Below, in pieces: positions 6,492-18,842 of a DNA stretch of 64,000 bases. Both the position numbers and the translations under genes were made by a program. The notes beneath the pieces were generated by a model that saw only the letters and a program-made list of their open reading frames with translations, searched no databases and had not been told where the DNA came from. Origin of the DNA: Pirellulales bacterium (GTDB lineage: Bacteria > Planctomycetota > Planctomycetia > Pirellulales > UBA1268); the NCBI GenBank assembly GCA_041746715.1, contig JBGTGN010000023.1:12245-76244 (forward strand), written 5' to 3'. Position 1 is the first letter of the stretch. Each line of letters begins with the position of its first letter.

Positions 6492-6624
6492 TCGGCGCTC
6501 GGAATCCTAGAAAACGGCTGGCTTCGGCGATAGGCGTTTTTCGACGAGCCACTCGAGGAATTTTCGTCTGCTATAGTGAGGGGCCTGTTTCAGCGTTGCT
6601 CGAACAGGAGGCCCGATTCGGCGT

Positions 6625-6700
6625 GGTGGCTGTAGCTCAGTTGGTTAGAGCATCGGTTTGTGGTACCGAGGGTCGCGGGTTCGAGTCCCGTCAGTCACCC
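6625..6700 (+). tRNA. tRNA-His (anticodon GTG)
   Basis: Cloverleaf folded by hand. Encoded G-1 at 6625. Acceptor GTGGCTG (6626-6632) pairs with CAGTCAC (6692-6698). D arm GCTC/GAGC. Anticodon stem TCGGT/ACCGA with loop TTGTGGT (anticodon 6660-6662). 5-nt variable loop. T arm GCGGG-TTCGAGT-CCCGT. Discriminator C at 6699. A full CCA is not encoded. Confidence 0.92.
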
Positions 6701-6757
6701 ATTTTTCTGCCGCGATTTTTCGCCCGCATCTCGCCCGCCTTCCCTGGAGTCGCCCGC

Positions 6758-8155
6758 ATGTCTCGCTCTCCCCGCCGCCAGTCCGCGAGCCGCCGTTCGT
6801 TCCTTGCTGCGTCATCAACTGTTGCCGCTGGCTACTTCGTGGCACCGCTGACGCGAGGGGAAGATGCCGCTCCTCCAACGAGTGCCAACGAGGAGATTCG
6901 TTTCGCCTGCATCGGGATTGGCGGCAAGGGGCAGAGCGACTCCGCTGACGCGGCACGCGGGGGAAAGGTCGTGGCGGTTGCCGACGTAGACTCCAATCAA
7001 CTCAAGCGGGCCGCGAAGTCGTTCGCCAGTGCCATGCCCTACACCGACTTCCGGAAGATGCTCGATGAGATGGCTGGCGAGATCGACGCGGTCACCATCA
7101 GCACGCCAGACCACACCCACATCACCGCCGCGGCGATGACGCTGGAGCTTGGGAAGCACTGCTTCTGCCAGAAGCCACTCACGCGGTCGATCGCAGCCGC
7201 CCGTCTGCTTGGCACCCTTGCCCGTGAGAAGGGCGTCGCCACGCAGATGGGGAACCAGGGCACCGCCGCCGATTCCCTGCGTCGGGCTGCCTCGCTCATC
7301 CAGTCAGGTGCGCTCGGCATGGTGAAGGAAGTGCATGTCTGGACCAACCGGCCGGTGTGGCCGCAGGGGGGTGGTCGGCCTCCCGAAGCGCCAGTGCCTC
7401 CAAACCTCGACTGGGATCTTTGGATCGGCCCCTCGCCGATGCGTCCCTACGGCCCGGGGTATCACCCGTTCGCGTGGCGGGGCTTCTGGGACTTTGGCAC
7501 CGGTGCCCTGGGCGACATGGCCTGCCACACGTTCAACATGCCATTCATGGCGCTCAATCTCCGCGACCCTTCGAGCGTGCAGGCGCTGACCAGTGGTCAC
7601 AACAAGGAGACGTATCCCAAGTGGTCGATGATCGACTATGAGTTTCCAGCGCTCGGCGAGCGGCAGGCGGTGAAGGTCAAGTGGTACGACGGCGGGAAAC
7701 TCCCCGACGCCACCCTGTTCGCCGGATTCCCGGCGGAGCGGAAGGAAATGAAAGACGGTACGGTCCAGGAGAAGCCATTTCAGGTCGCGGCGAGGGGGGT
7801 GCTCATCGTCGGCGACAAGGAATCCCTCTACGCTCCGGGCGACTACTGCGACCAAGGGATCAAGCTCCAGAGTGGTGCCACGCCGGCCGACGTCGCGTTC
7901 GAGAAGTCGCCTGGCCACTTCCGGGAGTGGATCGACGCCATCAGGGGCGGACCGGCCGCGCGGAGCAACTTCCCCGACTACGCCGGCCCGCTCACCGAAA
8001 CGATCCTGCTCGGCAACCTCGCCGTGTGGGCCGCCGACACACCCGACGCTCAGGGGAAGAAGATCGAGTGGGATCCAGTGAAGCTCGTCGCCACGAATGC
8101 TCCCGAGGTGGAGCATGTCGTGCGGCCGACGTATCGCGAAGGCTGGCAGATGTGA
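6758..8155 (+). CDS. Gfo/Idh/MocA-family oxidoreductase with twin-arginine (TAT) signal
   Basis: ATG 6758 gives MSRSPRRQSASRRSFLAASSTVAAG (RRSFL TAT motif at 6788-6805). Rossmann segment IRFACIGIGGKGQSD. The track ORF start at 6596 runs through the tRNA and is rejected. Confidence 0.85.
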   Translation: MSRSPRRQSASRRSFLAASSTVAAGYFVAPLTRGEDAAPPTSANEEIRFACIGIGGKGQSDSADAARGGKVVAVADVDSNQLKRAAKSFASAMPYTDFRKMLDEMAGEIDAVTISTPDHTHITAAAMTLELGKHCFCQKPLTRSIAAARLLGTLAREKGVATQMGNQGTAADSLRRAASLIQSGALGMVKEVHVWTNRPVWPQGGGRPPEAPVPPNLDWDLWIGPSPMRPYGPGYHPFAWRGFWDFGTGALGDMACHTFNMPFMALNLRDPSSVQALTSGHNKETYPKWSMIDYEFPALGERQAVKVKWYDGGKLPDATLFAGFPAERKEMKDGTVQEKPFQVAARGVLIVGDKESLYAPGDYCDQGIKLQSGATPADVAFEKSPGHFREWIDAIRGGPAARSNFPDYAGPLTETILLGNLAVWAADTPDAQGKKIEWDPVKLVATNAPEVEHVVRPTYREGWQM

Positions 8156-8193: not shown

Positions 8194-9441
8194 ATGAAGA
8201 ATATCTGGGTAGCGGTCGCGTTCGTCGGCTTCCTGATGGCCGCGGTCGCCGCGGGTGCCCCAGGGCCGAATGATGCCGTGGTGGCGGCTGTCGAGCGGAT
8301 CGGTGGGACCGTGACCAAAGGAAGCGATGGCCATGTGACCGGCATCGCGTTGGCCAATCTCCCAACAACCGATGATGACCTTGCGGTCTTTGCGAAAATC
8401 CCGGGCCTCGAGTCGCTCGACGTCTGGGGTGCCGAGATCACGGACACGGGCATGGAATCGATCGGCCGGATGACGAGCCTTCGGAGACTCGTGCTCGAGA
8501 ACACGGATGTCGCCGACGAGGGAGCTGCGGCGATCGCCCGGCTCGAAAATCTTCGCGTGCTCAACCTTCGTCGATCCTCGAACATGACCGATACGGCGCT
8601 CGAGCACGTCGCGAAGCTCGAGCAGCTCGAGCAGCTCATCCTCCTCTACAACAACTTCACCGATGCAGGGCTTGCCCACCTGGCCCCACTTGGCTCGCTT
8701 CGCGTGCTTGACCTTCGAGGCTGCGCCCTGGTGAGCGACGCGGGGCTCGAGCATGTGGCCAAGCTCACGAGCCTCGAGCGGGTCAAACTCCGCTGCCCAA
8801 GCGTGAGTGACATGGGGCTTGCCCACGTGGCGACGCTCCCGAAACTTCGCGGCTTCGCGGTCGAGGACGGTCAAGTCACCGATGCCGGGCTCGCTCCTTT
8901 CGCCACCAAGACCGACATCGACGAAATTAACGTGATGCGGACGTTCATCGGCGACGAGGGCCTTGGCCATCTCGCCGGGCTTGGGAAACTCAAGCGGCTC
9001 GAGCTCCGCGGCACACTCGTAGGAGATGCCGGGCTCGTGCACCTGGCGAAGCTGCCCGAGCTCGTGCTGCTCGACGTGGCGGAAACGACCGTCGGCGACG
9101 ATGGCGTGGCGCACCTGGCGGGCCTCGGAAAACTCTCCGCGCTCGATCTCTGGGATACGCGGGTTGGCGATGAGGGGATGGCGGCAGTCGGCAAGATCAC
9201 CAGCCTTGTCTCGCTCAATCTCCAAAACACCAGCGTGGGTGACGAGGGCGTGTCGCGACTCGCCGGGCTCGAGCGGCTCGAGGATATCACGCTCTCCGGC
9301 ACGCAGATCGGCGATGCCGCCCTGGTGACGCTCGCCAAGCTCCCACGGCTTCGTCGCGTTGCGCTCGCCTTCACGGCCGTCGGCGACGAGGCGATCGCGG
9401 CGCTTGCTGCCAAGCGGCCGGCGCTTGTCATCGAGCGGTAG
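8194..9441 (+). CDS. Exported leucine-rich-repeat (RNI-like LRR) protein
   Basis: Signal peptide MKNIWVAVAFVGFLMAAVAAGA. About 14 tandem 24-25-aa repeats of the form L..L.L..T.V.D.G...LA.L. GAGGAG lies 7 nt upstream of the ATG. Confidence 0.8.
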   Translation: MKNIWVAVAFVGFLMAAVAAGAPGPNDAVVAAVERIGGTVTKGSDGHVTGIALANLPTTDDDLAVFAKIPGLESLDVWGAEITDTGMESIGRMTSLRRLVLENTDVADEGAAAIARLENLRVLNLRRSSNMTDTALEHVAKLEQLEQLILLYNNFTDAGLAHLAPLGSLRVLDLRGCALVSDAGLEHVAKLTSLERVKLRCPSVSDMGLAHVATLPKLRGFAVEDGQVTDAGLAPFATKTDIDEINVMRTFIGDEGLGHLAGLGKLKRLELRGTLVGDAGLVHLAKLPELVLLDVAETTVGDDGVAHLAGLGKLSALDLWDTRVGDEGMAAVGKITSLVSLNLQNTSVGDEGVSRLAGLERLEDITLSGTQIGDAALVTLAKLPRLRRVALAFTAVGDEAIAALAAKRPALVIER

Positions 9442-9517
9442 CGTTCCACGGTCGCGGTCATGCGCGCCGCCTGGAACGACTTCGCGAGCGTGACGGAGCA
9501 GCCTTGGCGCTCGGCGT

Positions 9518-9546
9518 TTGACGCGAGTCCCCCGGAGGGGTATCAC
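9518..9546 (+). promoter_or_regulatory. Candidate sigma70-like promoter for the pspA cluster
   Basis: TTGACG (9518-9523), 17-nt spacer, TATCAC (9541-9546), ~90 nt upstream of the pspA ATG. A pyrimidine-rich tract follows (cttttcccgtttccctgttttccttttt). Pattern match only. Confidence 0.3.
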
Positions 9547-9638
9547 GACAGTCTCGCGGGCCCGAGTTTTACTGGCCTTTTCCCGTTTCCCTGTTTTCCT
9601 TTTTGTAAGCCACGAGTTCCGAAGCGGAGTCAACGACC

Positions 9639-10388
9639 ATGTTTCTCGGCAAGATATGGAAAGCGTTCGCCGCACAGATGAACAAGCTCGCCAACTTCTT
9701 TTGGACGGCTGATCCAATCGCCCAGCTTCAGTATGAGTACGACAAAGCGGTGGAGCAGATGAAGGAGGGGCGAGAGGGCCTTGAGCAATACCGGGCCCTT
9801 GTCGAACGGGTGACGAGGCAGGTCAACGCTGACCGGCAGCACGTGGCCTCGCTCGAGGCACGCGTGAAGGCTTACCTCAAGGCGGGTGAGCGAGATACCG
9901 CGGCCAGGTTTGCCCTCGAGCTTCAGAAGGCCAAGAAGGAGATGGCCGAGAACGAGGCCCAGCTCCAGCTCCACGAAACGGCCTATGAGAACAACGTCAC
10001 GAAGATCAAGCACGCCACGGGGAAACTCGGGGATCTCAAAACAAAGATTCAGAAATATGACGCCGAGCTCAAGCTCTCGCGAGCGGAAGCCGAGCTTGCC
10101 AAGCTTGCCCACAGCTTCAACTTCGACGTCACGACCGACTTCGGTCAGATCGAGGACGTGATCCAAGACAAGATTGGCTTGAACCGGGCCAAGGTTCGGG
10201 TGGCTGCCGACCTCTCAGGGCAGGGTCTCGAGGATATCCGCCGAGAGCAGGCCGTGGAGGCGACCATGGCGGCCGACGCCCTCCGGGAGTTTGAGGTCGA
10301 GCTGGGCCTTGTGACGCCCGAGACTGCAGGTGTCACCGCCGACGCCAAGGAGCTCGGTTCCCAGAAGATCAGCCAGACGGCTGACTGA
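9639..10388 (+). CDS. pspA: PspA/IM30/Vipp1-family protein (ESCRT-III superfamily)
   Basis: 249 aa. N-terminal amphipathic helix MFLGKIWKAFAAQMNKLANFF. DPIAQLQYEYDKAVEQMKEGREGLEQYRA and long coiled-coil helices typical of PspA. Confidence 0.88.
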   Translation: MFLGKIWKAFAAQMNKLANFFWTADPIAQLQYEYDKAVEQMKEGREGLEQYRALVERVTRQVNADRQHVASLEARVKAYLKAGERDTAARFALELQKAKKEMAENEAQLQLHETAYENNVTKIKHATGKLGDLKTKIQKYDAELKLSRAEAELAKLAHSFNFDVTTDFGQIEDVIQDKIGLNRAKVRVAADLSGQGLEDIRREQAVEATMAADALREFEVELGLVTPETAGVTADAKELGSQKISQTAD

Positions 10389-10421
10389 TTTCCACCATCC
10401 CGTCGAGAGTGAGCCGGTTTC

Positions 10422-12296
10422 GTGACGACGTCCATGCCCACCGTCGAGCCGGACCGGCGCCCCACGGCAGATGGAGCGCTTGGGCCGTCAGCGCTGGGCA
10501 CCGCTCCCACGACAACCGGTGCGGCTGCGTCGCTCGCCTCCTGGTGCCCCGGCTGGGCTGAGCGGCTTGGCGATGCGTATCTCTCCGGAACGAGCTGCGT
10601 CTTTCTCCTTCATGGCAACGTGCGGGATCTCGTGCCGGTCGCGCCGCCGATCGCCGGCCAGGCCGATTCAATCGATGCCTGGGGTACCGTTTCGGATTTT
10701 CTCGCCCGCGAGATGTTTGGCCGTTGGGATATCGTGCTGTCCTACGATGTCGGCAAGGGGCTTCGGCCGCTCGCCGGCAGCGATCCCGAGCGGCTGCGAG
10801 CGATGGCCCAGTGGCTCACCGAACGAGCCGGCGGTGCGCCGTCGTGGCCTCGCGATCCAGACGCGGCGATGGCCATGATCGATGCGATTCTCGAGCGAAA
10901 TCTGATCGATCCGCCCGAGCAACGAAAACGGATCGCCGTGGTGCTCGACTACGCGGCGTATCTCGTTCCGGCGGGCGAAAGCGGATCCCGGTCGGCGGCA
11001 TCGCGGATGGTTCGGATCCTGAGCTGGGCCCGGAATCCACTGCTTCGCCGAGTGAATGTCGCCATCGTTCTCATGACCGAGAGCCTCGCCGATGTCCATC
11101 CACGACTGACTACAAGCGGGGCGATCACGGCGGTCGAGGTTCCAATGCCAGACCACGTCGAGCGGGAACGGTTTGCCCTGGCGACCGCGGCGGCCTCGGG
11201 CGTTTCGGCCGATCAGGATGCGGCGGTGCGTCGGATGGCAGCCGTTTCGGGAGGGCTCACACTCGAGAGTCTCCGCGGCGTGATCACACTCGCGGCTCGC
11301 GATGGGTCGGCGCCTGATGGCCGAGAGTTTGCCGAAAAGAAAAAGGACCTCATCGAGCGAAGCTGTCACGGTTTGGTGGAGTTCATCGAGCCGCGGCTTT
11401 CGCTCGATGCCGTGGCGGGGCATGGCGAGGCGAAAAACCGACTTGAATCGGACGCCCGAGCGATCCGCCGCGGACAGTTCGAGGCAGCCCCGATGGGCTA
11501 TCTCATCTGCGGCCCCGTCGGCACGGGCAAGAGTTTTATTGCCGAATGCTATGCGGGGACCGTGGGCATCCCCTGTGCCGTGCTCAAGAACTTCCGCAGC
11601 AAGTACGTCGGGGAGACCGAGGGCAATCTCGAACACGCCCTCGGTGTGCTCCGAAGCCTGGGGCCTGTGGTGATCGTGGTGGATGAGGCCGACGCGGCCC
11701 TCGGCAACCGTGAGAGCACGGGTGACTCCGGCACAAGTGGCCGCGTGTTCTCGATGATCGCTCGCCAGATGGGTGACACTCGCTACCGCGGCAAGATCGT
11801 CTGGATGCTCCTCACGAGCCGGCCAGACCGATTGCCGATCGACCTCAAACGGCAGGGCAGGGCGGAGGTCCATATTCCTCTTTTCTATCCGCACGATCAG
11901 CAGGAAATGGCCGCGATGTTTGCGGCGATGGCCCGCAAGGCCAAGGTGACGCTCGCAGCCGGGCTGCCTGGCCCGATCGATCTCGACATGGGGCTCTCCG
12001 GGGCCGACATCGAAAGCGTGGTATTGGCCGCACGACGACGGGGGCTTGAGCGGGCCTCGGAAGCTGGTGCGCCGCCGCCTGACGAGATTGCCGAAGCCGA
12101 TCTCCGGGCGGCCCTCGACGATTTCCTCCCCTCGGCCCAGGGGCTCGAAAAGGAGCTTCAGGAAATCGTGGCGGTCCTCGAATGCACCGAGAAACGGTTT
12201 CTTCCGTCACACTGGCGGGCAGCCATTGAGCAGCCTGGCGGTCGCGGCCGACTCCAGGAGCGGGCCGCTGCGATCCGCGAGATAATCCGTTCATGA
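10422..12296 (+). CDS. Tandem AAA ATPase (classical AAA clade, CDC48/Vps4-like): degenerate D1 plus active D2
   Basis: GTG 10422 (ATG 10434 is an alternative). D2 has Walker A GPVGTGKS (11511-11534), Walker B VVIVVDEAD and the SRH-like LLTSRPDRLPIDLKRQGRAEVHIPLFYP. The N-terminal half keeps the AAA layout but lacks P-loop residues (see findings). Confidence 0.85.
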   Translation: MTTSMPTVEPDRRPTADGALGPSALGTAPTTTGAAASLASWCPGWAERLGDAYLSGTSCVFLLHGNVRDLVPVAPPIAGQADSIDAWGTVSDFLAREMFGRWDIVLSYDVGKGLRPLAGSDPERLRAMAQWLTERAGGAPSWPRDPDAAMAMIDAILERNLIDPPEQRKRIAVVLDYAAYLVPAGESGSRSAASRMVRILSWARNPLLRRVNVAIVLMTESLADVHPRLTTSGAITAVEVPMPDHVERERFALATAAASGVSADQDAAVRRMAAVSGGLTLESLRGVITLAARDGSAPDGREFAEKKKDLIERSCHGLVEFIEPRLSLDAVAGHGEAKNRLESDARAIRRGQFEAAPMGYLICGPVGTGKSFIAECYAGTVGIPCAVLKNFRSKYVGETEGNLEHALGVLRSLGPVVIVVDEADAALGNRESTGDSGTSGRVFSMIARQMGDTRYRGKIVWMLLTSRPDRLPIDLKRQGRAEVHIPLFYPHDQQEMAAMFAAMARKAKVTLAAGLPGPIDLDMGLSGADIESVVLAARRRGLERASEAGAPPPDEIAEADLRAALDDFLPSAQGLEKELQEIVAVLECTEKRFLPSHWRAAIEQPGGRGRLQERAAAIREIIRS

Positions 12297-12364
12297 CTGT
12301 GCGGCGCTGCCGCTCGCCATCCCCACGATCAGCCCAGCACCATCACCCCCCGAGGAAGACCCGA

Positions 12365-12658
12365 ATGTCCGCAAAGACCCCATGGTTCGACGACAAGACC
12401 GAGGCCCCGCTCCTGGCAGAGTATGCTCGCAAACTCGATTCCTTCTGCGATGCTGTGGCCGATGGAAAGGTGACGTCGGCGGAGCTCGACGAGCAGGAGA
12501 AGCGTCTGGTGGCTCACATGAAGGCGCTCGAACCGATGCTTTCCGATGAGGCCCATGAGAAAGTGACGCAGCTCCTCTGCGAGGTGACGGCCTACGGTCT
12601 CATGCAGGCGATGCACCTGGCGGGTAAGAGCCGTCCGAAGACAACATTCCGCGGCTGA
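12365..12658 (+). CDS. Small helical hypothetical protein (97 aa; 121 aa if ATG 12293 is used)
   Basis: ATG 12365 is preceded by GAGGAAG 7 nt upstream. The alternative ATG 12293 forms an ATGA overlap with the AAA stop. Sequence MSAKTPWFDDKTEAPLLAEYARKLDSFCDAVADGKVTSAELDEQEKRLVAHMKALEP... has no motif I recognise. Confidence 0.5.
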   Translation: MSAKTPWFDDKTEAPLLAEYARKLDSFCDAVADGKVTSAELDEQEKRLVAHMKALEPMLSDEAHEKVTQLLCEVTAYGLMQAMHLAGKSRPKTTFRG

Positions 12659-12718
12659 TGCCGACCGTATCTGTTCACGATTCAACCTGAGTACGAACCC
12701 CCGAGGAGAGGCGATTCC

Positions 12719-14482
12719 ATGGCAGGGCAACCAAAAACATCATTCTGGGTGACCGTGTGGCTTGTGGCACTTGCCCTTGTTGGATACGCGGCATGGAAGT
12801 GGGGCGTGTTCGATCAGGGTGGCGGTGCGCAAGTGCCCCCGCCGCCGGTCGCGGCCGGAGGGGTGAACGCCGGCGGCGGTGGTGGCGGCGACGACCTGCC
12901 CACCGAAGCTCCCGATGAGATGGTCCCGACAACAGTTCAGGAATACGCGTTTAAGCCAACCGAGCGGTTGCCTCCGGTGACAGGTATCGCAGGCTACAAG
13001 CCCCTCGAGGATGACACCGTTCGGTTCGCGCTCAACGTGTGGGCCGGCTGGGCGCCGATTATCTACGCCAACGAGGGCTTTCAGCCTGGCAAAATCTGGC
13101 AGGCGCCGGGTGGCAAGCCGTTCAAGGTGGAGCTTGTGCTCATCGACAACCCCGTGACCATGCGGGATGCCTGGGCGGCCGGAGAAGTGCCGATCGGCTG
13201 GGCCACACTCGACATGGTGCCCCTCTTTCTCGAGGGGCTCGTCGATGCATCGGGGAAGCCGAAGGATTCCCGAGCCATGCCGCGGATCTACCAGCAGGTC
13301 GATTTTTCCAACGGCGGCGACGGCATCGTGGTTCGCGAAAATATCAAGACGGTGGCCGATCTCGCCGGCAAGAAGCTCGTGCTCGCCCAGAATTCCCCGA
13401 GCCAGTTCTTCGCCCTCAACATGCTCGTCAATGGTGGGCTTCAGCCAGGCGATGTGGAGATGATCTACACCGACGACGCCTTCCAGGCGGCCGCCGCGTT
13501 CAATGCCCAAAAGAATCTCGCGGGCTGCGTGTCCTGGGCGCCCGACATCTACAACCTTGAGAAGGCGAAGGGCAATCGCATGCTCGTTACGACCCTCACG
13601 GCCAACAGACTCATCGCCGACGTCTGGTTCGCCCGAGCCGACTTCGCGAAGGATCACCCCGACAAGATCGAGGCAATCGTGCGGGGCATCTTCGACGCGA
13701 TGGAGGAGCTCAAGACGGAGAGCGCGAAGGCAAAGGCGGCTGAGCTTATGGCCGACGGCTTCAACATTCCGGCCAGCGATACGCTCGGCATGATGGCCGA
13801 CGCCCACTCCACCAACTGGGCCGAGAACTACCAGTTCTTCATCAACCGCAACAATCCGTCCAACTTTGAGCGGCTCTGGAAGCAGGCTTACCGGCTCTAC
13901 CGAAAAGTGGGCACCATCACCCACCCGGCCGTGCCATTTGACCAGGTGATGGATTTCTCGGTCATCCAGAAGCTCGGCAAGGAGCCGAAGTATGGGGAGA
14001 CAAAAGACGAGTACGATCGGCCGCTCCCGCCGAAATCGCTCTCGGCAATCCGGGCAGAAAACGAAGAGATCCTTACCAACACCGTCGTCATTCACTTTTT
14101 TCCCAATAGCGCCGATTTCCGAAAACTCATCACTCGGAAGATCGACGGTAAGGCCGTCGAGGAACCCTATGACCCACGTGCCGATCTCGTGCTCGATGAG
14201 GTCGCCACGCTTGCCAAGCAGTTCGGCAACGCGAGGATCGTGATCGAGGGCCACACGGACGGCTCGATGAAGGGGCAGATTCCGGCATCGCTCGTGAAAG
14301 AACTGTCGATGTCGCGAGCCGAGTCGGTGAAGAACGAGATCATCGCGAAGTTTGACTTCGATGCGAACCGGTTTGCCGTGGATGGTTTGGGCTGGGACCG
14401 ACCGGCCGATCCCGACCAACCGCATGAGCACGTGCTCAACCGTCGCGTGGAGATCAAGGTCTACTCCGCCGAGAAGGAGTGA
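12719..14482 (+). CDS. Membrane-anchored ABC substrate-binding protein (NitT/TauT, NMT1-like) fused to a C-terminal OmpA-like peptidoglycan-binding domain
   Basis: N-terminal TM segment FWVTVWLVALALVGYAAW, then a Gly/Pro linker. SBP core: VRFALNVWAGWAPIIYANEGF...GKKLVLAQNSPSQFFAL. C-terminal OmpA_C pattern: RIVIEGHTDGS...SMSRAESVKNEI...NRRVEIKV (about 14126-14482). GAGGAGAGG lies upstream of the ATG. Confidence 0.8.
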   Translation: MAGQPKTSFWVTVWLVALALVGYAAWKWGVFDQGGGAQVPPPPVAAGGVNAGGGGGGDDLPTEAPDEMVPTTVQEYAFKPTERLPPVTGIAGYKPLEDDTVRFALNVWAGWAPIIYANEGFQPGKIWQAPGGKPFKVELVLIDNPVTMRDAWAAGEVPIGWATLDMVPLFLEGLVDASGKPKDSRAMPRIYQQVDFSNGGDGIVVRENIKTVADLAGKKLVLAQNSPSQFFALNMLVNGGLQPGDVEMIYTDDAFQAAAAFNAQKNLAGCVSWAPDIYNLEKAKGNRMLVTTLTANRLIADVWFARADFAKDHPDKIEAIVRGIFDAMEELKTESAKAKAAELMADGFNIPASDTLGMMADAHSTNWAENYQFFINRNNPSNFERLWKQAYRLYRKVGTITHPAVPFDQVMDFSVIQKLGKEPKYGETKDEYDRPLPPKSLSAIRAENEEILTNTVVIHFFPNSADFRKLITRKIDGKAVEEPYDPRADLVLDEVATLAKQFGNARIVIEGHTDGSMKGQIPASLVKELSMSRAESVKNEIIAKFDFDANRFAVDGLGWDRPADPDQPHEHVLNRRVEIKVYSAEKE

Positions 14483-14488
14483 CCGGCT

Positions 14489-15475
14489 GTGGCAGACACG
14501 CCTGCTCAATCGTCCGATGCGGGTCGATCGATCGATGCCGGGAAGAGGCCTGCGCGAGTCTCCTCGCCGCTTCGTGGCGACCTCTCGACGGAGGCGACGT
14601 TTCTCTGGGGCGCCGCGGCGATCGTCACGGTTCTCCTCGCCTGGTGGCTCGCCACGGCGCCACTGTTTCCGGTGCCGGTCGAACATGTCGCCGAGCGGCC
14701 TCCGGAGCGTGAATATGTGCCGCTGGTGAGCCCTGTCATGCTACCGGGGCCAGGGGCGGTCTTCGAGGCGGTGCCCCGTGTGATCACGGAGCGAAAACTC
14801 CTCGCGAACACTCGCGTGACGCTCGTACGGGTGTTGATGGGTTTTGGGCTCGCGGCACTCATCGGTGTGCCACTGGGGGTGGCGGCCGCCTGCTTTCCGT
14901 CGGTGCGAGCGTTTCTCTATCCCGTGACGATCTTCGGTCGCAACATTCCTGTGGCCGCCCTCATCCCGCTCACGTTTTCACTTTTTGGGATCGGCGAGTT
15001 CCAGAAGGTGATGTTTCTCTTTGTCGCGAGCGTCGCGTTTGTGATCAGCGATGCGACGGCCGCCGTGCTGGAGGTGCCGCAGCGGTATGTCGATACGGCG
15101 CTCACCCTGGGGGCCTCGCGGCTCCAGATCATTCTCAAGGTGCTCGTGCCGCTCGCGGCACCCGTGATCTTCAACTCCTTGCGACTCCTCTTCGGCCTCG
15201 CCTTCGGCTACGTAATGCTGGCTGAGCTCGTAAAGTTTGGAAACGATTCCGGAGGGCTGGGCGACCTCATCAACATCTCCCAGCGGCGAGGGGACCGGGA
15301 GCCGATTCTCATCGTGCTCATCGTGATTCCGATCTTGGCCTACGCCATCGATCGAAGCCTGTGGTGGCTCCAGTGCGATCTCTTTCCGTATCGCTACGGC
15401 GGCAAGGGGCGGATTCCTCGGCTGTTCCGGAAACTCTTCAGCCCGCCGCCAGTGACCGTGGAGGTCAGGCCATGA
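14489..15475 (+). CDS. ABC transporter permease (NitT/TauT family)
   Basis: Multi-TM protein with an EAA-type loop DTALTLGASRLQIILKVLVPLAAP. It starts 6 nt after the SBP stop. The exact start is uncertain (GTG 14489). Confidence 0.85.
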   Translation: MADTPAQSSDAGRSIDAGKRPARVSSPLRGDLSTEATFLWGAAAIVTVLLAWWLATAPLFPVPVEHVAERPPEREYVPLVSPVMLPGPGAVFEAVPRVITERKLLANTRVTLVRVLMGFGLAALIGVPLGVAAACFPSVRAFLYPVTIFGRNIPVAALIPLTFSLFGIGEFQKVMFLFVASVAFVISDATAAVLEVPQRYVDTALTLGASRLQIILKVLVPLAAPVIFNSLRLLFGLAFGYVMLAELVKFGNDSGGLGDLINISQRRGDREPILIVLIVIPILAYAIDRSLWWLQCDLFPYRYGGKGRIPRLFRKLFSPPPVTVEVRP

Positions 15476-16335
15476 TGCCAGACAACCAGGCGGTCGTTCC
15501 AGAGCCCCCAATCGATCGTCCGCTGGCCATCGAGCTTCGCGGCGTCACCAAGGTGTATCTCCCTGGAACGCCCCGCGAGGTCACCGCGATCAGCGATGTG
15601 ACGTTCACCATCCCCGATCGCCATGACCACGGCGAGTTCTGCTCGTTTCTGGGACCGAGCGGCTGCGGGAAGAGCACCGTTCTCCGCATGGTTGCCGGCC
15701 TCGGACCGCAGTTCCCTCCGACGAGCGGGAGCGTTCGCGTGCTAGGCCATGAGGTGGTTGGCCCGGGTGCCGATCGGGGCATGGTCTTTCAGGACTACAC
15801 GAGCTTCGACAACCGGACCGTGCTCGATAACGTGACGTTTGGGCTCGAGTGTCGCGGGGTACTCAACCCGCACCGGGAGGCCGAGGGGCTCGACTGGATC
15901 GAGCGGGTGGGACTCGATCCGCGGCGAGACGCAGCGAAGTATCCCCACGAGCTTTCGGGTGGCATGCGGCAGCGGGTGGCCATCGCCCGCACGCTCATCC
16001 TGCGGCCCCGCGTGATCCTCATGGACGAGCCCTTCGGGGCGCTCGACCCGGCCACTCGGCTCGACATGCAGGACTTGCTTGTGAAACTCTGGCGGGAGGC
16101 CGAGGCCACCGTGCTCTTCGTGACCCACTCGGTCGAGGAGGCCGTGTATCTCGGCGATCGGGTTTTCCTTATGTCGACGACACCGGGGAGGATCGCCGAG
16201 GAGCTCACGCTTCCATCTCCCTCCGCCCCGGCACGCGAGGCCCAGTCGCAACCCTGGTTCAACGACGAGGTCGCGAGGCTCCACTCGAGAATCGAACGGA
16301 TCGAGGCTGAGGCAAAGCCTCTTCCAGACCGCTAA
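15472..16335 (+). CDS. ABC transporter ATP-binding protein (NitT/TauT family)
   Basis: ATG 15472 forms an ATGA overlap with the permease stop. Walker A GPSGCGKST, signature LSGGMRQRVAIAR, Walker B VILMDEPFGALD. Confidence 0.9.
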   Translation: MMPDNQAVVPEPPIDRPLAIELRGVTKVYLPGTPREVTAISDVTFTIPDRHDHGEFCSFLGPSGCGKSTVLRMVAGLGPQFPPTSGSVRVLGHEVVGPGADRGMVFQDYTSFDNRTVLDNVTFGLECRGVLNPHREAEGLDWIERVGLDPRRDAAKYPHELSGGMRQRVAIARTLILRPRVILMDEPFGALDPATRLDMQDLLVKLWREAEATVLFVTHSVEEAVYLGDRVFLMSTTPGRIAEELTLPSPSAPAREAQSQPWFNDEVARLHSRIERIEAEAKPLPDR

Positions 16336-16372
16336 CCACGCAGGGCTGAGCCCGGCCGGTGTCCTTTCAACG

Positions 16373-17212
16373 ATGTTCGAACAAATTGGTCGTTACCTCA
16401 GCGCTGCCTTCACCCACCACTGGAACCTGCTCTTTGTTGGGGCCGGGACGGCGGTGGCGTTTCTGAGTGGCCGCCCTGATGTCGTGATCCCGCTCGTTGC
16501 CGCCGGTGAGGTGCTCTACCTGGCGACCCTCATGACGAACGACCGATTTCGGGCGGCGATCGATGCCCAGGAAGCGAAGGACCGTCGGCAGGTCGATACA
16601 GCCGGAACCCAAGCGGCCTATGACCGTATCCGCAGCCAGCTTCCGCCGGCGCTTCTCACTCGATTCGATCAGCTTCGGGCCCACTGTCACAAGCTCACCG
16701 AGCTGGCCGGCAGCATGCGCGGCCCGGATGTGAGCGGCCCTGATCGGAATGCGGTGGAGTCACTCGAGCGGCTTCTGTGGGGGCATCTCCGCATGATCTG
16801 GAACGCGGCGAAGCTCTCCGAGTTTCTCGATCACACGGATGACGGTGCGCTCCGCAAGCGAGTCACGGAGCTGGAGAAGCGATTGGCTGGCATCCCAGAA
16901 GACGCTGGGGCTGCGCCTCTTCGAACAGCGGTAGACGACAACCTTCGGACAACACGGGAGCGGCTGGAAAACATCGACGAGGCCCGCCGCAAGCTCGACG
17001 TCGTTGCCGCGGAGATCGAGCGGCTTGAAACAAAGATCGCGGCCTTGGCCGAAGGCGCCGTGGCGCGCCGCGACGTCAGCGACATCGCCCAGCGTGTTGA
17101 CGAGGTCGCGGAGGGAATGCGTCGCACCGACGAGACCATGCGACAGCTCCAGCTTCCGCCCGAGCTCGAGGCGTTTGAAGCCCCCCCCGCGCTCCTCCGC
17201 GACGAAGCGTAG
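16373..17212 (+). CDS. Hypothetical membrane-anchored coiled-coil protein
   Basis: Two hydrophobic segments (WNLLFVGAGTAVAFL, VVIPLVAAGEVLYLATL), then ~200 aa of charged heptad-like helices (RKRVTELEKRLAG..., LDVVAAEIERLETKIAALAEG). It lies 37 nt after the ABC ATPase. No recognisable family. Confidence 0.6.
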   Translation: MFEQIGRYLSAAFTHHWNLLFVGAGTAVAFLSGRPDVVIPLVAAGEVLYLATLMTNDRFRAAIDAQEAKDRRQVDTAGTQAAYDRIRSQLPPALLTRFDQLRAHCHKLTELAGSMRGPDVSGPDRNAVESLERLLWGHLRMIWNAAKLSEFLDHTDDGALRKRVTELEKRLAGIPEDAGAAPLRTAVDDNLRTTRERLENIDEARRKLDVVAAEIERLETKIAALAEGAVARRDVSDIAQRVDEVAEGMRRTDETMRQLQLPPELEAFEAPPALLRDEA

Positions 17213-17617
17213 CCACGAGAGCTGGAAGCATTTACTCCCGGAGTCGGAGCCCAGGACCTCCGGGACTGGTTGAATGCGGGCTGCACTCGCTGCGCGGATG
17301 CGGCCATCCCCGCTGCTCGGGGTTGCCCATGCCGCATCGCCGGACGCTTCCTCCGGGCATCCTGCCCTCCGGTCGCTCGATGTAGCCCTCGCTTCGCCAT
17401 CCTGGCTTCGCTCGGCCTACAACGCCGGCTCCGCGGCACTGGCAACCTCTCGCGGATTCCATACTGGAGGCATTGAGGCACAGATACGTGGCCACCATTC
17501 GCTTGCGAATCCGCGTGCGCCCCGGCTGCTCAGGCGCACCACACCGCAGCGGTTACGAGCACGGGAGCCCGGAGGTGCGACCGCCGCCCGGAGGGGCGGG
17601 AAGACCGCCGGGGCCAT

Positions 17618-17660
17618 GGATGGCCCGCCGGTCGTAAAGAGGGATGGCCCGCCGTTCGTA
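17618..17660. repeat. Two copies of a 19-nt direct repeat (period 24 nt)
   Basis: ggatggcccgccggtcgta (17618-17636) and ggatggcccgccgttcgta (17642-17660), one mismatch. Immediately 3' of the Top6A-like stop codon. Confidence 0.7.
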
Positions 17661-17663
17661 TAG

Positions 17664-18842
17664 TCAGTCCAGCCAATTGCCTTCGGCGATTCGCTCGGGG
17701 GCATACGTCTCGGTGACGTAGCTGATGTCTTTCGAGATGAGAGCCTCGACTTCCAGCTTAAAGCCATTGGAGAGCATGGTCTCGATCTCCTTCTGCCATG
17801 GCTTTTTGCCAGCGAACCATGGGTAGGCGGCAATCTGCTTGGCTCGCTTGATGTCGGTGTCGTTGAGCGCGATTTGGACGCTTGGCGAGAGCTTGCACCG
17901 TTCGTAGTCGCGGCTGCGGAGACCGAGAAAGCGGGCCTCCGGTATGGCCATGCGTTTCGATTCGTACCCGAGATTGATCGAGCCTTGCTTGAGTACGGAG
18001 TAGATGTAGTACCCCCAGGGGTCGTTGTCGAGCAGGCAGTAGACAGGCAGCTTGAGCTCGTGGTGGAGACGGTGGAGCATTCGCCGGACACCGCGGGGGG
18101 GCTGGCCACCCCCGTGGGTCAGGAGGCAGTTGTGCTTCCGCCAAAACTTATCCTCGTTGAACCGTCGCCAGACAGTGTCTTTTTCGACATGGAGAATGAA
18201 CTTCGCGTCGCACGACTTGAACCGGATGACGTCGGCCTCGACGATCGACGGAATCGAGTAGCCGCTTGATCCCATGCGAGCGCAGTCGAGCTCATCGCCG
18301 GAATCGATGAGCGTGATCGGCCCGACGAGTCCGCCGCGGTTGCTGGCATAGACATGGAGCTCCTCGCGAAGGCTTTCGAGCGTGACTTCGAGGTCTTCGA
18401 TGATCGGGTCACACTCCTCCTGGGTCGCGAACGTCTCCTCGCGGGTGCCATCGATCGTGTGCTTGAGGAGGTAGTAGAGACCTCGGATACTGGTTGTTTT
18501 CTGTTGATCGATGAGCTGCTTGCATCCGGTGGCCACGAGCAAGGTTTGCATGTAGCTCTTGGCCTGGGAGAGGTTGAAGAGCTGCCGGCGATTCTTCTGG
18601 CTCCCCATCTCGATGATCTTCCGCGCCTTGTTGAAGCGGACGTTTGAGAGAGTGCGGGCAGGGATATCGAGCGAGGGATCCCGCCGTCTTTCGGCAGCAG
18701 CGGCGACCTCATCGGCAAGGCCCATGATGAGCTTGCGGGTCTTGAGATCGACGGGGGGGAGCTTTTCAGCCGGAGCTTTCGACGTGGATTTCGGCGTGCG
18801 GGCCATGCGCGGTAAGCTTCCGAGGGCTAGGATATGGGGCAA
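17664..18842 (-). CDS. top6A: DNA topoisomerase VI subunit A / Spo11-like protein (5Y-CAP plus Toprim)
   Basis: TSIRGLYYLLKH (RGLYY at 18471-18485). Toprim motifs ILHVEKDT (Glu at 18183-18185) and LLDNDPWGYYIY (DxD at 18021-18029). Also GGQPPRGVRRMLHRL and FKLEVEAL. Alternative start ATG 18806 (MARTPKS). Confidence 0.85.
   Translation of the reverse strand: MPHILALGSLPRMARTPKSTSKAPAEKLPPVDLKTRKLIMGLADEVAAAAERRRDPSLDIPARTLSNVRFNKARKIIEMGSQKNRRQLFNLSQAKSYMQTLLVATGCKQLIDQQKTTSIRGLYYLLKHTIDGTREETFATQEECDPIIEDLEVTLESLREELHVYASNRGGLVGPITLIDSGDELDCARMGSSGYSIPSIVEADVIRFKSCDAKFILHVEKDTVWRRFNEDKFWRKHNCLLTHGGGQPPRGVRRMLHRLHHELKLPVYCLLDNDPWGYYIYSVLKQGSINLGYESKRMAIPEARFLGLRSRDYERCKLSPSVQIALNDTDIKRAKQIAAYPWFAGKKPWQKEIETMLSNGFKLEVEALISKDISYVTETYAPERIAEGNWLD

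Follow-up and report, generated by a model that had tools for sequence, protein, structure and literature searches.

Can a bacterial PspA protein be part of an ATP-driven cycle that is tied, through an importer, to the cell wall? What activates the bacterial ESCRT-III proteins (PspA, Vipp1), sets their place and disassembles them is an open question, and it is raised here by a cluster of seven genes in a 64,000-nucleotide (nt) stretch of a Pirellulales genome (assembly GCA_041746715.1, contig JBGTGN010000023.1, positions 12,245 to 76,244; hereafter the window, ~63% G+C). The seven open reading frames (ORFs) occupy 9639-17212 of the + strand and run in one direction; they encode PspA, a tandem AAA+ ATPase, a small protein of 97 amino acids (aa), a substrate-binding protein fused to an OmpA-like domain (SBP-OmpA), a permease, an ATP-binding cassette (ABC) ATPase and a helical protein with a predicted membrane hairpin. 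That these genes form one operon is well supported computationally, and the seven-gene combination is found, by sequence comparison, in several bacterial phyla. We tentatively read the cluster, with a probability of roughly 45%, as one operon in which a PspA polymer, its membrane receptor and a AAA+ recycler would be coupled to a wall-tethered importer or sensor, the two halves being separable modules.

The composition has already been noted in comparative genomics. Ravi et al. 2024 (mSystems 9:e00847-23, PMC11237479) described PspA, inactive-AAA+AAA, TM-Snf7, ABC ATPase, permease and PBPB-OmpA in one operon, with OGG56892.1 of Candidatus Handelsmanbacteria as the example (PspA, PBPB+OmpA, transmembrane (TM) permease, ABC ATPase, TM+Snf7, inactive-AAA+AAA), and proposed, as contextual inference in a few sentences, ATP-dependent membrane remodelling linked to solute transport. 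This is the comparative study to which a preliminary description of the locus had alluded. Our literature searches for experiments on the cluster or on SBP-OmpA fusions returned nothing beyond it, which, together with the conservation across phyla described below, agrees with the description of a conserved but uncharacterised system. All six published components are in the window with the same domain architectures. The published AAA gene, however, stands at the end of the cluster, whereas that of the window is directly 3' of pspA, and the published gene string is without the 97-aa gene, which in the window follows the AAA gene and is conserved. New here are this permuted order, the 97-aa gene that accompanies the AAA gene, a transporter-less variant in which the binding protein is fused to a VWA domain and has the same TM anchor, the separability of the two halves, the p97-like AAA protein with its dead first module (D1), and the PspA identities across loci.

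We recomputed the gaps between the seven genes as 33, 68, 60 and 6 nt, a 4-nt ATGA overlap (15472-15475) and 37 nt, with medians of 43, 64, 60, -13, -4 and 26 nt at about 50-80 related loci; an alternative start of the small ORF at 12293 would replace its 68-nt gap by an ATGA overlap with the AAA stop at 12293-12296. The ORFs, coordinates and gaps reported earlier were all reproduced exactly, and Pfam and NCBIfam confirmed the domain calls (Table 1). When 260 nt 5' of pspA were aligned from 53 related loci, the candidate promoter appeared as a conserved block (TTGAC 91-100%, GGTA at 9539-9542 100%, A9545 91%) between flanking positions of mostly 10-60%, a conservation beyond what chance would give. 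It is the sole conserved promoter-like block of the cluster at these loci, as the earlier placement of a promoter 5' of pspA only would have it. A generic promoter scan of the + strand called no sigma-70-type site; the scanner missed the candidate because its last base is not T. In the four internal gaps analysed in relatives the conserved blocks are ribosome-binding sites only, a terminator scan gave no convincing internal terminator, and an Rfam scan of 9000-18000 gave nothing relevant. Co-directional genes, short conserved gaps, the single promoter block and the lack of a convincing internal terminator all point the same way, as does every available computational test, and we infer from them that the seven genes are co-transcribed, as had been proposed. 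The hairpin reported 3' of the last gene exists and was considered as an intrinsic terminator, a candidate we rejected: it has no U tract, its fold is no better than that of 12 of 200 shuffled sequences (z = -1.8), and similar hairpins stand 3' of the last gene in nearly all G+C-rich relatives with their sequence unconserved, so that it is no evidence for a terminator.

Table 1. Coordinates of the cluster features in the window, and gene arrangements at distant loci
Feature	Position	Strand	Properties
Candidate promoter	9518-9546	+	TTGACG (9518-9523), 17-nt spacer, TATCAC (9541-9546); core TTGAC ... GGTAtcA
Ribosome-binding site GGAG	9626-9629	+	9 nt 5' of pspA ATG; 96-100% conserved in 53 loci
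pspA, 249 aa	9639-10388	+	Divergent PspA/IM30 (ESCRT-III superfamily); amphipathic N-terminal helix; conserved C-terminal FEVEhGhxTPET tail
AAA+ ATPase, 624 aa	10422-12296	+	Residues 1-40 disordered; D1 ~44-330 degenerate; second module (D2) ~335-560 with complete classical AAA motifs
Small protein, 97 aa	12365-12658 (alternative start 12293)	+	Matches no family; gene travels with the AAA gene
SBP-OmpA, 587 aa	12719-14482	+	TM ~7-26, Gly-rich linker, NitT/TauT-type SBP ~97-450, OmpA-like ~486-585
Permease, 328 aa	14489-15475	+	TauC/SaoP-like BPD_transp_1; multiple TM segments (hydropathy)
ABC ATPase, 287 aa	15472-16335	+	TauB-like; start overlaps permease stop (ATGA)
Membrane-hairpin helical protein, 279 aa	16373-17212	+	Hydrophobic helices 16-31, 35-55; helical domain 57-257; C-terminal acidic stretch and [AVT]-P-x-[ILF]-[LIV]
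Hairpin 3' of last gene	17237-17264	+	8-bp stem, 14-nt loop; weak feature of doubtful significance
SBP-VWA gene, L086	1409-3127		Replaces SBP-OmpA
SBP-VWA gene, L087	8309-9997		Replaces SBP-OmpA
SBP-VWA gene, L172	2165-3883		Replaces SBP-OmpA
Loci L082/L083, L084, L089, L170			PspA, SBP-OmpA, permease, ABC, hairpin, AAA (the published order); small gene last in L084 and L170
Locus L085 and about ten metagenome loci			Order of the window; AAA identity ~50-56%
Locus L088			Same genes plus an insertion
Locus L081			No adjacent AAA gene

The gene order is kept among close relatives. A scan of GTDB with one genome per species returned 381 relatives, and in the best 80 loci of these, which we examined, the order of the window is found wherever the contig permits. 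PspA, AAA and the small gene are present in 52 of the 53 GTDB loci with at least 3.4 kb upstream, and permease, ABC ATPase and hairpin gene in all 54 that reach 2.8 kb or more downstream. Another 80 loci came from a scan of metagenomes with PspA as the anchor, and 24 of the 27 that extend at least 7.1 kb downstream have the full set. The cluster is very common in freshwater Pirellulales. Part of this synteny reflects shared ancestry, because the flanking leucine-rich-repeat (LRR) and topoisomerase VI subunit A (Top6A) genes are often conserved as well.

The distant loci carry the argument further. At these loci the identity to the window proteins is 54-72% for PspA, 56-63% for SBP-OmpA, 61-66% for the ABC ATPase, 43-55% for AAA, 44-53% for the permease, 45-49% for the small protein and 31-42% for the hairpin protein; the outside neighbours differ every time, and the G+C content ranges from 35 to 68%. 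As gene order (Table 1), G+C content, neighbours and identities all vary, the linkage survives both rearrangement and deep divergence. A sister variant (L086, L087, L172) has PspA, a SBP_bac_8/11-VWA fusion, the hairpin protein and usually AAA, and no permease or ATPase; its SBP-VWA has the same N-terminal MxGxPKxxFW membrane anchor as SBP-OmpA.

PspA of the window matches PspA_IM30 (PF04012) at 48.5 bits (cut-off 33.9; 1.1e-12), with residues 3-211 aligned to positions 3-202 of the 220 in the profile, and the orthologues in L082, L084, L085, L089 and L171 are annotated PspA_IM30 too. Despite this weak match, the identity at the distant loci is high, and PspA of the SBP-VWA locus L087 is 58% identical to that of the window. 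Residues 2-22 (FLGKIWKAFAAQMNKLANFFW) have a hydrophobic moment that ranks 6th of 228 windows along the protein; K5, W7, A12, Q13, N15, K16, F21 and W22 are invariant in the alignment. A PspA/IM30 effector with an amphipathic N-terminal helix is what the cluster has in common with the classical Psp and Lia systems (E. coli pspF-pspABCDE; B. subtilis liaIH and pspA-ydjGHI; M. tuberculosis clgR-pspAMN). In those, the effector is recruited by a small membrane protein of the same operon (LiaI, PspBC), and we presume likewise for PspA of the window. The difference from the classical psp operon, claimed earlier, holds: Pfam and NCBIfam searches gave no PspB, PspC, PspF or LiaI-type domain, and no pspB, pspC, pspF, liaI/liaF/liaSR, pspM/N or ydjGHI domain is found in the seven proteins or in the flanking LRR and Top6A genes. 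Unlike Psp and Lia, the cluster is without PspB, PspC, PspF, LiaI/F, PspM/N, Band-7 and two-component genes; its ATPase is a classical-clade tandem AAA+ unfoldase by family, not the sigma-54 activator PspF, and an ABC importer is added. We also asked if the C-terminal tail motif of PspA goes with the presence of the AAA gene and dropped the idea: L087 is without both, but L081 has the tail without an adjacent AAA gene, and the cases are too few. In L086 the PspA gene (598-1371) is interrupted by a stop in frame (…RGLV*RVSRQ…), and gene calling split it in two; either the sequence has an error here or the gene is a pseudogene. L172, of near-identical architecture, has an intact 257-aa PspA gene.

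The PF00004 (AAA) match of the second gene product is restricted to its C-terminal half (361-486). There D2 has Walker A GPVGTGKS, pore loop KYVG, Walker B DEAD and the RQGR arginines; invariant among 44 homologues are Walker A (G364-K370), the pore loop (K394-V396-G397), Walker B (D421-E422), the second loop GDSGTS, R477 and R480. A sequence search of the PDB with residues 353-583 found AFG2/SPATA5, Cdc48/p97 and VAT, at 16-18% identity over D2 with all motifs in common. The N-terminal half gives no profile match in Pfam or NCBIfam, lax thresholds included, and a comparison of the two halves by hhalign gives no signal of internal duplication. In the AlphaFold2 model (mean predicted local distance difference test, pLDDT, 83.8), however, the N half folds as a second alpha/beta-plus-lid module, and in Foldseek the chain can be aligned over about 560-640 columns with D1-D2 of p97, Cdc48 and Rix7 (E ~1e-17 to 4.6e-19). 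The tandem nature is thus argued from structure prediction, Foldseek and motifs, because the profile comparison of the two halves was negative. In D1, strand 60-65 is followed by LHGNVRD, so that the P-loop position reads FLLHGNVRD with no GKT, and strand 171-176 at the Walker B position ends in LDYA with no DE; D1 therefore cannot be expected to hydrolyse ATP. Residues 1-40 are poorly conserved. Pfam and NCBIfam give no MIT match, and a CdvC model reaches 2.3e-10 over the AAA core only. Judged by its model, this is a tandem ATPase of the p97 type in which D1 is dead; it is not a Vps4, and it could perform the job of Vps4. The whole chain aligns to D1-D2 as in the tandem AAA+ proteins with one inactive ring (p97/Cdc48, AFG2/SPATA5, Rix7/NVL, Pex1/6); in contrast to these, it is without an N-terminal double-psi barrel or other adaptor-binding domain, the Walker A and B motifs of D1 are fully lost, and the family has conserved cysteines. 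C315, C363, C376 and C588 are invariant and C385 is at least 90% conserved across the 44 homologues (42-87% identity), one of the cysteines directly preceding Walker A and another lying in a conserved C-terminal LECT motif; they may confer redox or metal sensitivity.

The small ORF is, judged by its conservation, a real gene linked to the AAA gene. Its start is at 12365 rather than 12293, because the alignments with homologues begin at residue 1-4 of the 97-aa form and the 68 nt 5' of 12365 are unconserved apart from the ribosome-binding site. The product is 62-90% identical in 71 Pirellulales loci; in the distant L084 and L085 its homologues (45-49%) are again encoded directly 3' of the AAA gene, and L170 has a 96-aa gene 3' of AAA. 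No Pfam, NCBIfam or PADLOC model matches it, lax thresholds included. It is probably not the PspAA domain, which according to Ravi et al. contains a four-stranded beta-sheet.

The fourth protein matches NMT1, NMT1_2 and OmpA in Pfam (PF00691, 38.3 bits, cut-off 27.2) and the SsuA, TauA and uca binding proteins in NCBIfam. Hydropathy gives one N-terminal TM segment, at residues 7-26. In the Pirellulales alignment the mean column identity is 83%, TM residues included, and the TM anchor is almost invariant; more than 120 database clusters at ≥75% identity show the same architecture throughout and are from Planctomycetota or Pirellulales wherever named. D514 and R533 are invariant and align with the HTD and SLARA residues of Acinetobacter baumannii OmpA (3TD3). 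The corresponding Asp and Arg of that structure contact the diaminopimelate of the peptidoglycan stem. SBP-OmpA would thus be fixed with one end at the inner membrane and with the other at the cell wall. Its domain has the HTD...SxxRA...NRRVE signature of the OmpA-like anchors (Pal, MotB/PomB, TssL, YiaD), but it is fused to a transporter binding protein and not to a stator, lipoprotein or secretion-system subunit.

The permease (PF00528, 3.6e-20; SaoP 3e-30 and TauC 8e-25 in NCBIfam) has in its translation an EAA-like coupling loop, DTALTLGASRLQIILKVLVP. In the ABC ATPase (PF00005, 4.6e-26; TauB 9e-59) the catalytic motifs read from the translation are all intact (GPSGCGKS, LSGGMRQR, ILMDEPF, VTHS). 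Binding protein, permease and ATPase are predicted to be a complete type I ABC importer of the NitT/TauT family; since no NCBIfam model reaches its equivalog cut-off with any of the transporter proteins, no substrate is assigned. The best family matches are the NitT/TauT importers (TauABC, SsuABC, NrtABCD; TC 3.A.1.16/17), which have the same order of binding protein, permease and ATPase and the same overlapping stop and start codons. In contrast to them, the binding protein of the window is TM-anchored, ends in an OmpA-like domain and is conserved far beyond what is usual for such proteins, and no sulfur- or nitrogen-metabolism genes are near the cluster. Databases at present annotate SBP-OmpA as a taurine, nitrate or "phosphate" transporter subunit.

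The last gene, called a TM coiled-coil gene in the preliminary description, is the SIG+TM+Snf7 component of Ravi et al. and no extra gene; a membrane-hairpin helical protein of the same size is at the corresponding position in the distant loci with the published order. With E<=1e-3 as the limit, its family comprises 672 cluster representatives (clustered at 50% identity), and with E<=1e-10 it comprises 268; the named members come from Lentisphaerae, Desulfobacterales and Fuerstiella. AlphaFold2, with an alignment of 46 sequences, gives an all-helical model (pLDDT 90.4; predicted template modelling score 0.78) with helices at 2-14, 16-31, 35-55, 57-89, 92-115, 125-154, 157-173, 178-232 and 235-257. 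Helices 16-31 and 35-55 are both hydrophobic with a three-residue turn between them, and would form a membrane hairpin with both ends of the protein cytoplasmic. Nearly every member of the family ends in the acidic stretch and motif given in Table 1, which looks like a docking peptide. We could not reproduce the published assignment as a divergent Snf7 with sequence or model: the protein matched coiled-coil noise and no family in Pfam and NCBIfam, Snf7 is not among the Pfam matches listed by hmmscan for 46 family members, a profile search of PDB sequences with the family gave nothing relevant, hhalign against the PspA family of the cluster gave a probability of 0.3%, and the best match of the model to the PDB in Foldseek had E = 0.27, the 50 matches listed including no ESCRT-III; helical hairpins, however, are poorly discriminated.

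These parts can be put together as follows, where we infer all contacts between the proteins, the substrate and the direction of signalling. All seven genes would be transcribed from the conserved promoter. One module would work at the cytoplasmic face of the inner membrane and consist of the PspA polymer, the AAA+ protein with dead D1 and a complete active site and threading pore loops in D2, and the 97-aa partner; the other would span the envelope with the binding protein held by membrane and wall, the TauC-like permease, the TauB-like ATPase and the hairpin protein. The wall-tethered binding protein and its transporter would, at a fixed site, take up a periplasmic solute or signal its presence. 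The hairpin protein, beside the TM helix of the binding protein and the transporter, would be the membrane receptor or nucleator at which PspA polymerises, whereby the membrane is stabilised or reshaped. The AAA+ protein, with the small protein, would then thread PspA (or the hairpin protein) through the D2 pore, so that the polymer is dismantled and recycled, which is the job of Vps4 on ESCRT-III. Physical coupling of the two modules is hinted at because a near-invariant TM anchor peculiar to the system is common to two kinds of binding protein that otherwise differ, the hairpin protein is always beside PspA, and this PspA subfamily is highly conserved. Such a reading would account for an odd but widespread architecture, a binding protein tied to both membrane and peptidoglycan, and the cluster offers a compact, genetically defined system in which ATP-driven recycling of PspA and its ligand- or wall-coupled recruitment can be tested.

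A stronger form of this scheme, which we regard as unlikely, is that the cluster is a true bacterial counterpart of ESCRT-III/Vps4, with a PspA polymer, a hairpin nucleator and a AAA+ disassemblase with a 97-aa adaptor, switched on at set places in the envelope by a periplasmic ligand sensor clamped to both inner membrane and wall. As with ESCRT-III/Vps4 of eukaryotes and Asgard archaea and CdvB/CdvC of Crenarchaeota, a polymer of the ESCRT-III superfamily is encoded beside a classical-clade pore-loop AAA+ protein, and a membrane-anchoring partner, in the role of CdvA or ESCRT-II, is encoded alongside. The window ATPase differs from Vps4 in having no MIT domain and two AAA modules with a dead D1, which makes it p97-like; the polymer is of the PspA and not the Snf7 branch, and no winged-helix (wH)/ESCRT-II protein is encoded. 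According to recent reviews (PMC7619361, PMC10936438), bacteria have no Vps4-like partner. If the stronger form were true, bacteria would have active, ATP-driven remodelling (local repair, invagination, scission) in place of passive stabilisation, and regulated, energy-consuming ESCRT-like cycles would extend beyond archaea and eukaryotes.

Several observations weigh against the coupled operon that we favour. L028 (1-5975) has SBP-OmpA, permease, ABC ATPase and hairpin gene with unrelated genes upstream and no PspA-AAA-small; in L107 (8143-11788), L117 (12710-14344), L130 and L114 Top6A comes right after PspA-AAA-small, as though the other four genes had been cut out cleanly. The cluster is partial in L164 and L171, and L081 and L087 are without an adjacent AAA gene. 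Close relatives split exactly at the junction of the small gene and the SBP gene, which is therefore the boundary of the modules, and the linkage of the two halves claimed at the outset stands, on these comparisons, as a rule and not as an obligation. This separability suits the view that two independent units are adjacent by inheritance, a PspA-AAA-small stress unit and an ordinary NitT/TauT importer with an accessory membrane protein, uncoupled from each other; it also fits the transporter-less PspA-AAA dyads in Firmicutes (PMC11237479) and the fact that much of the synteny comes from one order, where the unrelated LRR and Top6A flanks are conserved too. We nevertheless find it quite unlikely, as the association persists across phyla and G+C contents in another order, with PspA adjoining SBP-OmpA and AAA after the hairpin gene, the surroundings of the cluster are different at each distant locus, and the hairpin protein goes with PspA and AAA in the transporter-less variant as well. 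That same variant, being without a transporter, tells against the preferred reading in another way, because import may then not be central. The main rival, somewhat unlikely in our estimate, is accordingly that the binding protein serves chiefly as a sensor or anchor in the periplasm, from which ligand or membrane-peptidoglycan strain would act through the TM helix on the hairpin protein and on PspA assembly, with permease and ATPase, where present, tuning or resetting it. The MxGxPKxxFW anchor in both kinds of binding protein, the PspA-PBPB-TM/Snf7 triad without transporter in Archangium (PMC11237479) and the unusual conservation of the binding protein across the order are in its favour. Yet the importer of the window is complete with all catalytic and coupling motifs intact, the conservation of ABC ATPase and permease in distant loci argues for real transport, and the cluster has no signalling domain.

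The preferred reading has further weak points. How the first hydrophobic helix of the hairpin protein sits in the membrane is uncertain, as only residues 36-55 pass a strict hydropathy threshold, and the role of the protein as receptor or nucleator is argued only from position and topology, since hmmscan, hhalign and Foldseek detected no similarity to PspA or ESCRT-III. The AAA+ protein might, moreover, not act on PspA and instead extract or unfold membrane proteins of the cluster (hairpin protein, permease, SBP-OmpA) in the manner of Cdc48/p97 or FtsH, PspA sealing the membrane meanwhile. Its structural closeness to p97, Cdc48, AFG2 and Rix7 rather than Vps4, the missing MIT domain, the conserved exposed C-terminal motif of the hairpin protein, which could be an engagement tag, and the place of the AAA gene after the hairpin gene in the order of the distant loci, which we regard as the commoner one, would fit. 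Against this stand the PspA-AAA dyads without hairpin or transporter genes (PMC11237479; L107, L117), the likewise conserved C-terminal tail of PspA and the lack of an encoded protease partner, and we hold it to be slightly less probable than two uncoupled units. An anti-phage or abortive-infection role is rejected as highly improbable: PspA has a history as a phage-induced protein, the AAA domain has a weak similarity to IetA/IteA (2e-08 in PADLOC, 1e-06 in NCBIfam), and restriction-modification genes or DNA-methylase fragments are near two distant loci, but the PADLOC matches are to generic AAA, ABC, MotB and coiled-coil models only, the chromosomal position is stable throughout one order, the components are highly conserved and not fast-evolving, and no nuclease, protease or toxin domain is encoded in the cluster.

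Minor observations concern the distant loci and the surroundings of the cluster. In L171 (13155-14951) the genes 3' of PspA-AAA-small-SBP/OmpA are a 130-aa ORF and a AAA_15/AAA_21 (OLD/AbiEii-like) ATPase in place of permease-ABC-hairpin, as if genes had been inserted or exchanged there. A multi-zinc-ribbon protein is encoded 3' of the AAA gene in L086 and L172. Directly 5' of the cluster in the window is the LRR gene (8194-9441, +), whose product has a signal-like N terminus; the nearest relatives have it in synteny, at 58-80% identity, in others unrelated LRR genes on the opposite strand take its place, and it is not part of the conserved system. The Top6A/Spo11-like gene (17664-18842, -; TOP6A Toprim 3.7e-58) is convergent with the cluster and is the downstream neighbour in most Pirellulales loci (84-93% identity). 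Further upstream a tRNA-His (GTG) is at 6626-6700 (+), and a long "ORF" at 6596-8155 overlaps its position; because of this clash the real start of that Gfo/Idh/MocA-like gene is further downstream. A repeat of about 135 nt lies at 17316-17450, with imperfect terminal inverted repeats (17321-17343 and 17425-17447, 78% complementary) and the core GGGGYTGCCCRTGCC...CGTCGCCGGACGTTCGC; it has no Rfam match and is present in a single copy in the window. It is also found 3' of the last gene in many Pirellulales loci, and elsewhere or in tandem in L066 (14590-14721 and 14965-15096), L010 (99-229), L057 and L030, and it looks like an intergenic repeat of the repetitive extragenic palindromic (REP) or miniature inverted-repeat transposable element (MITE) type.

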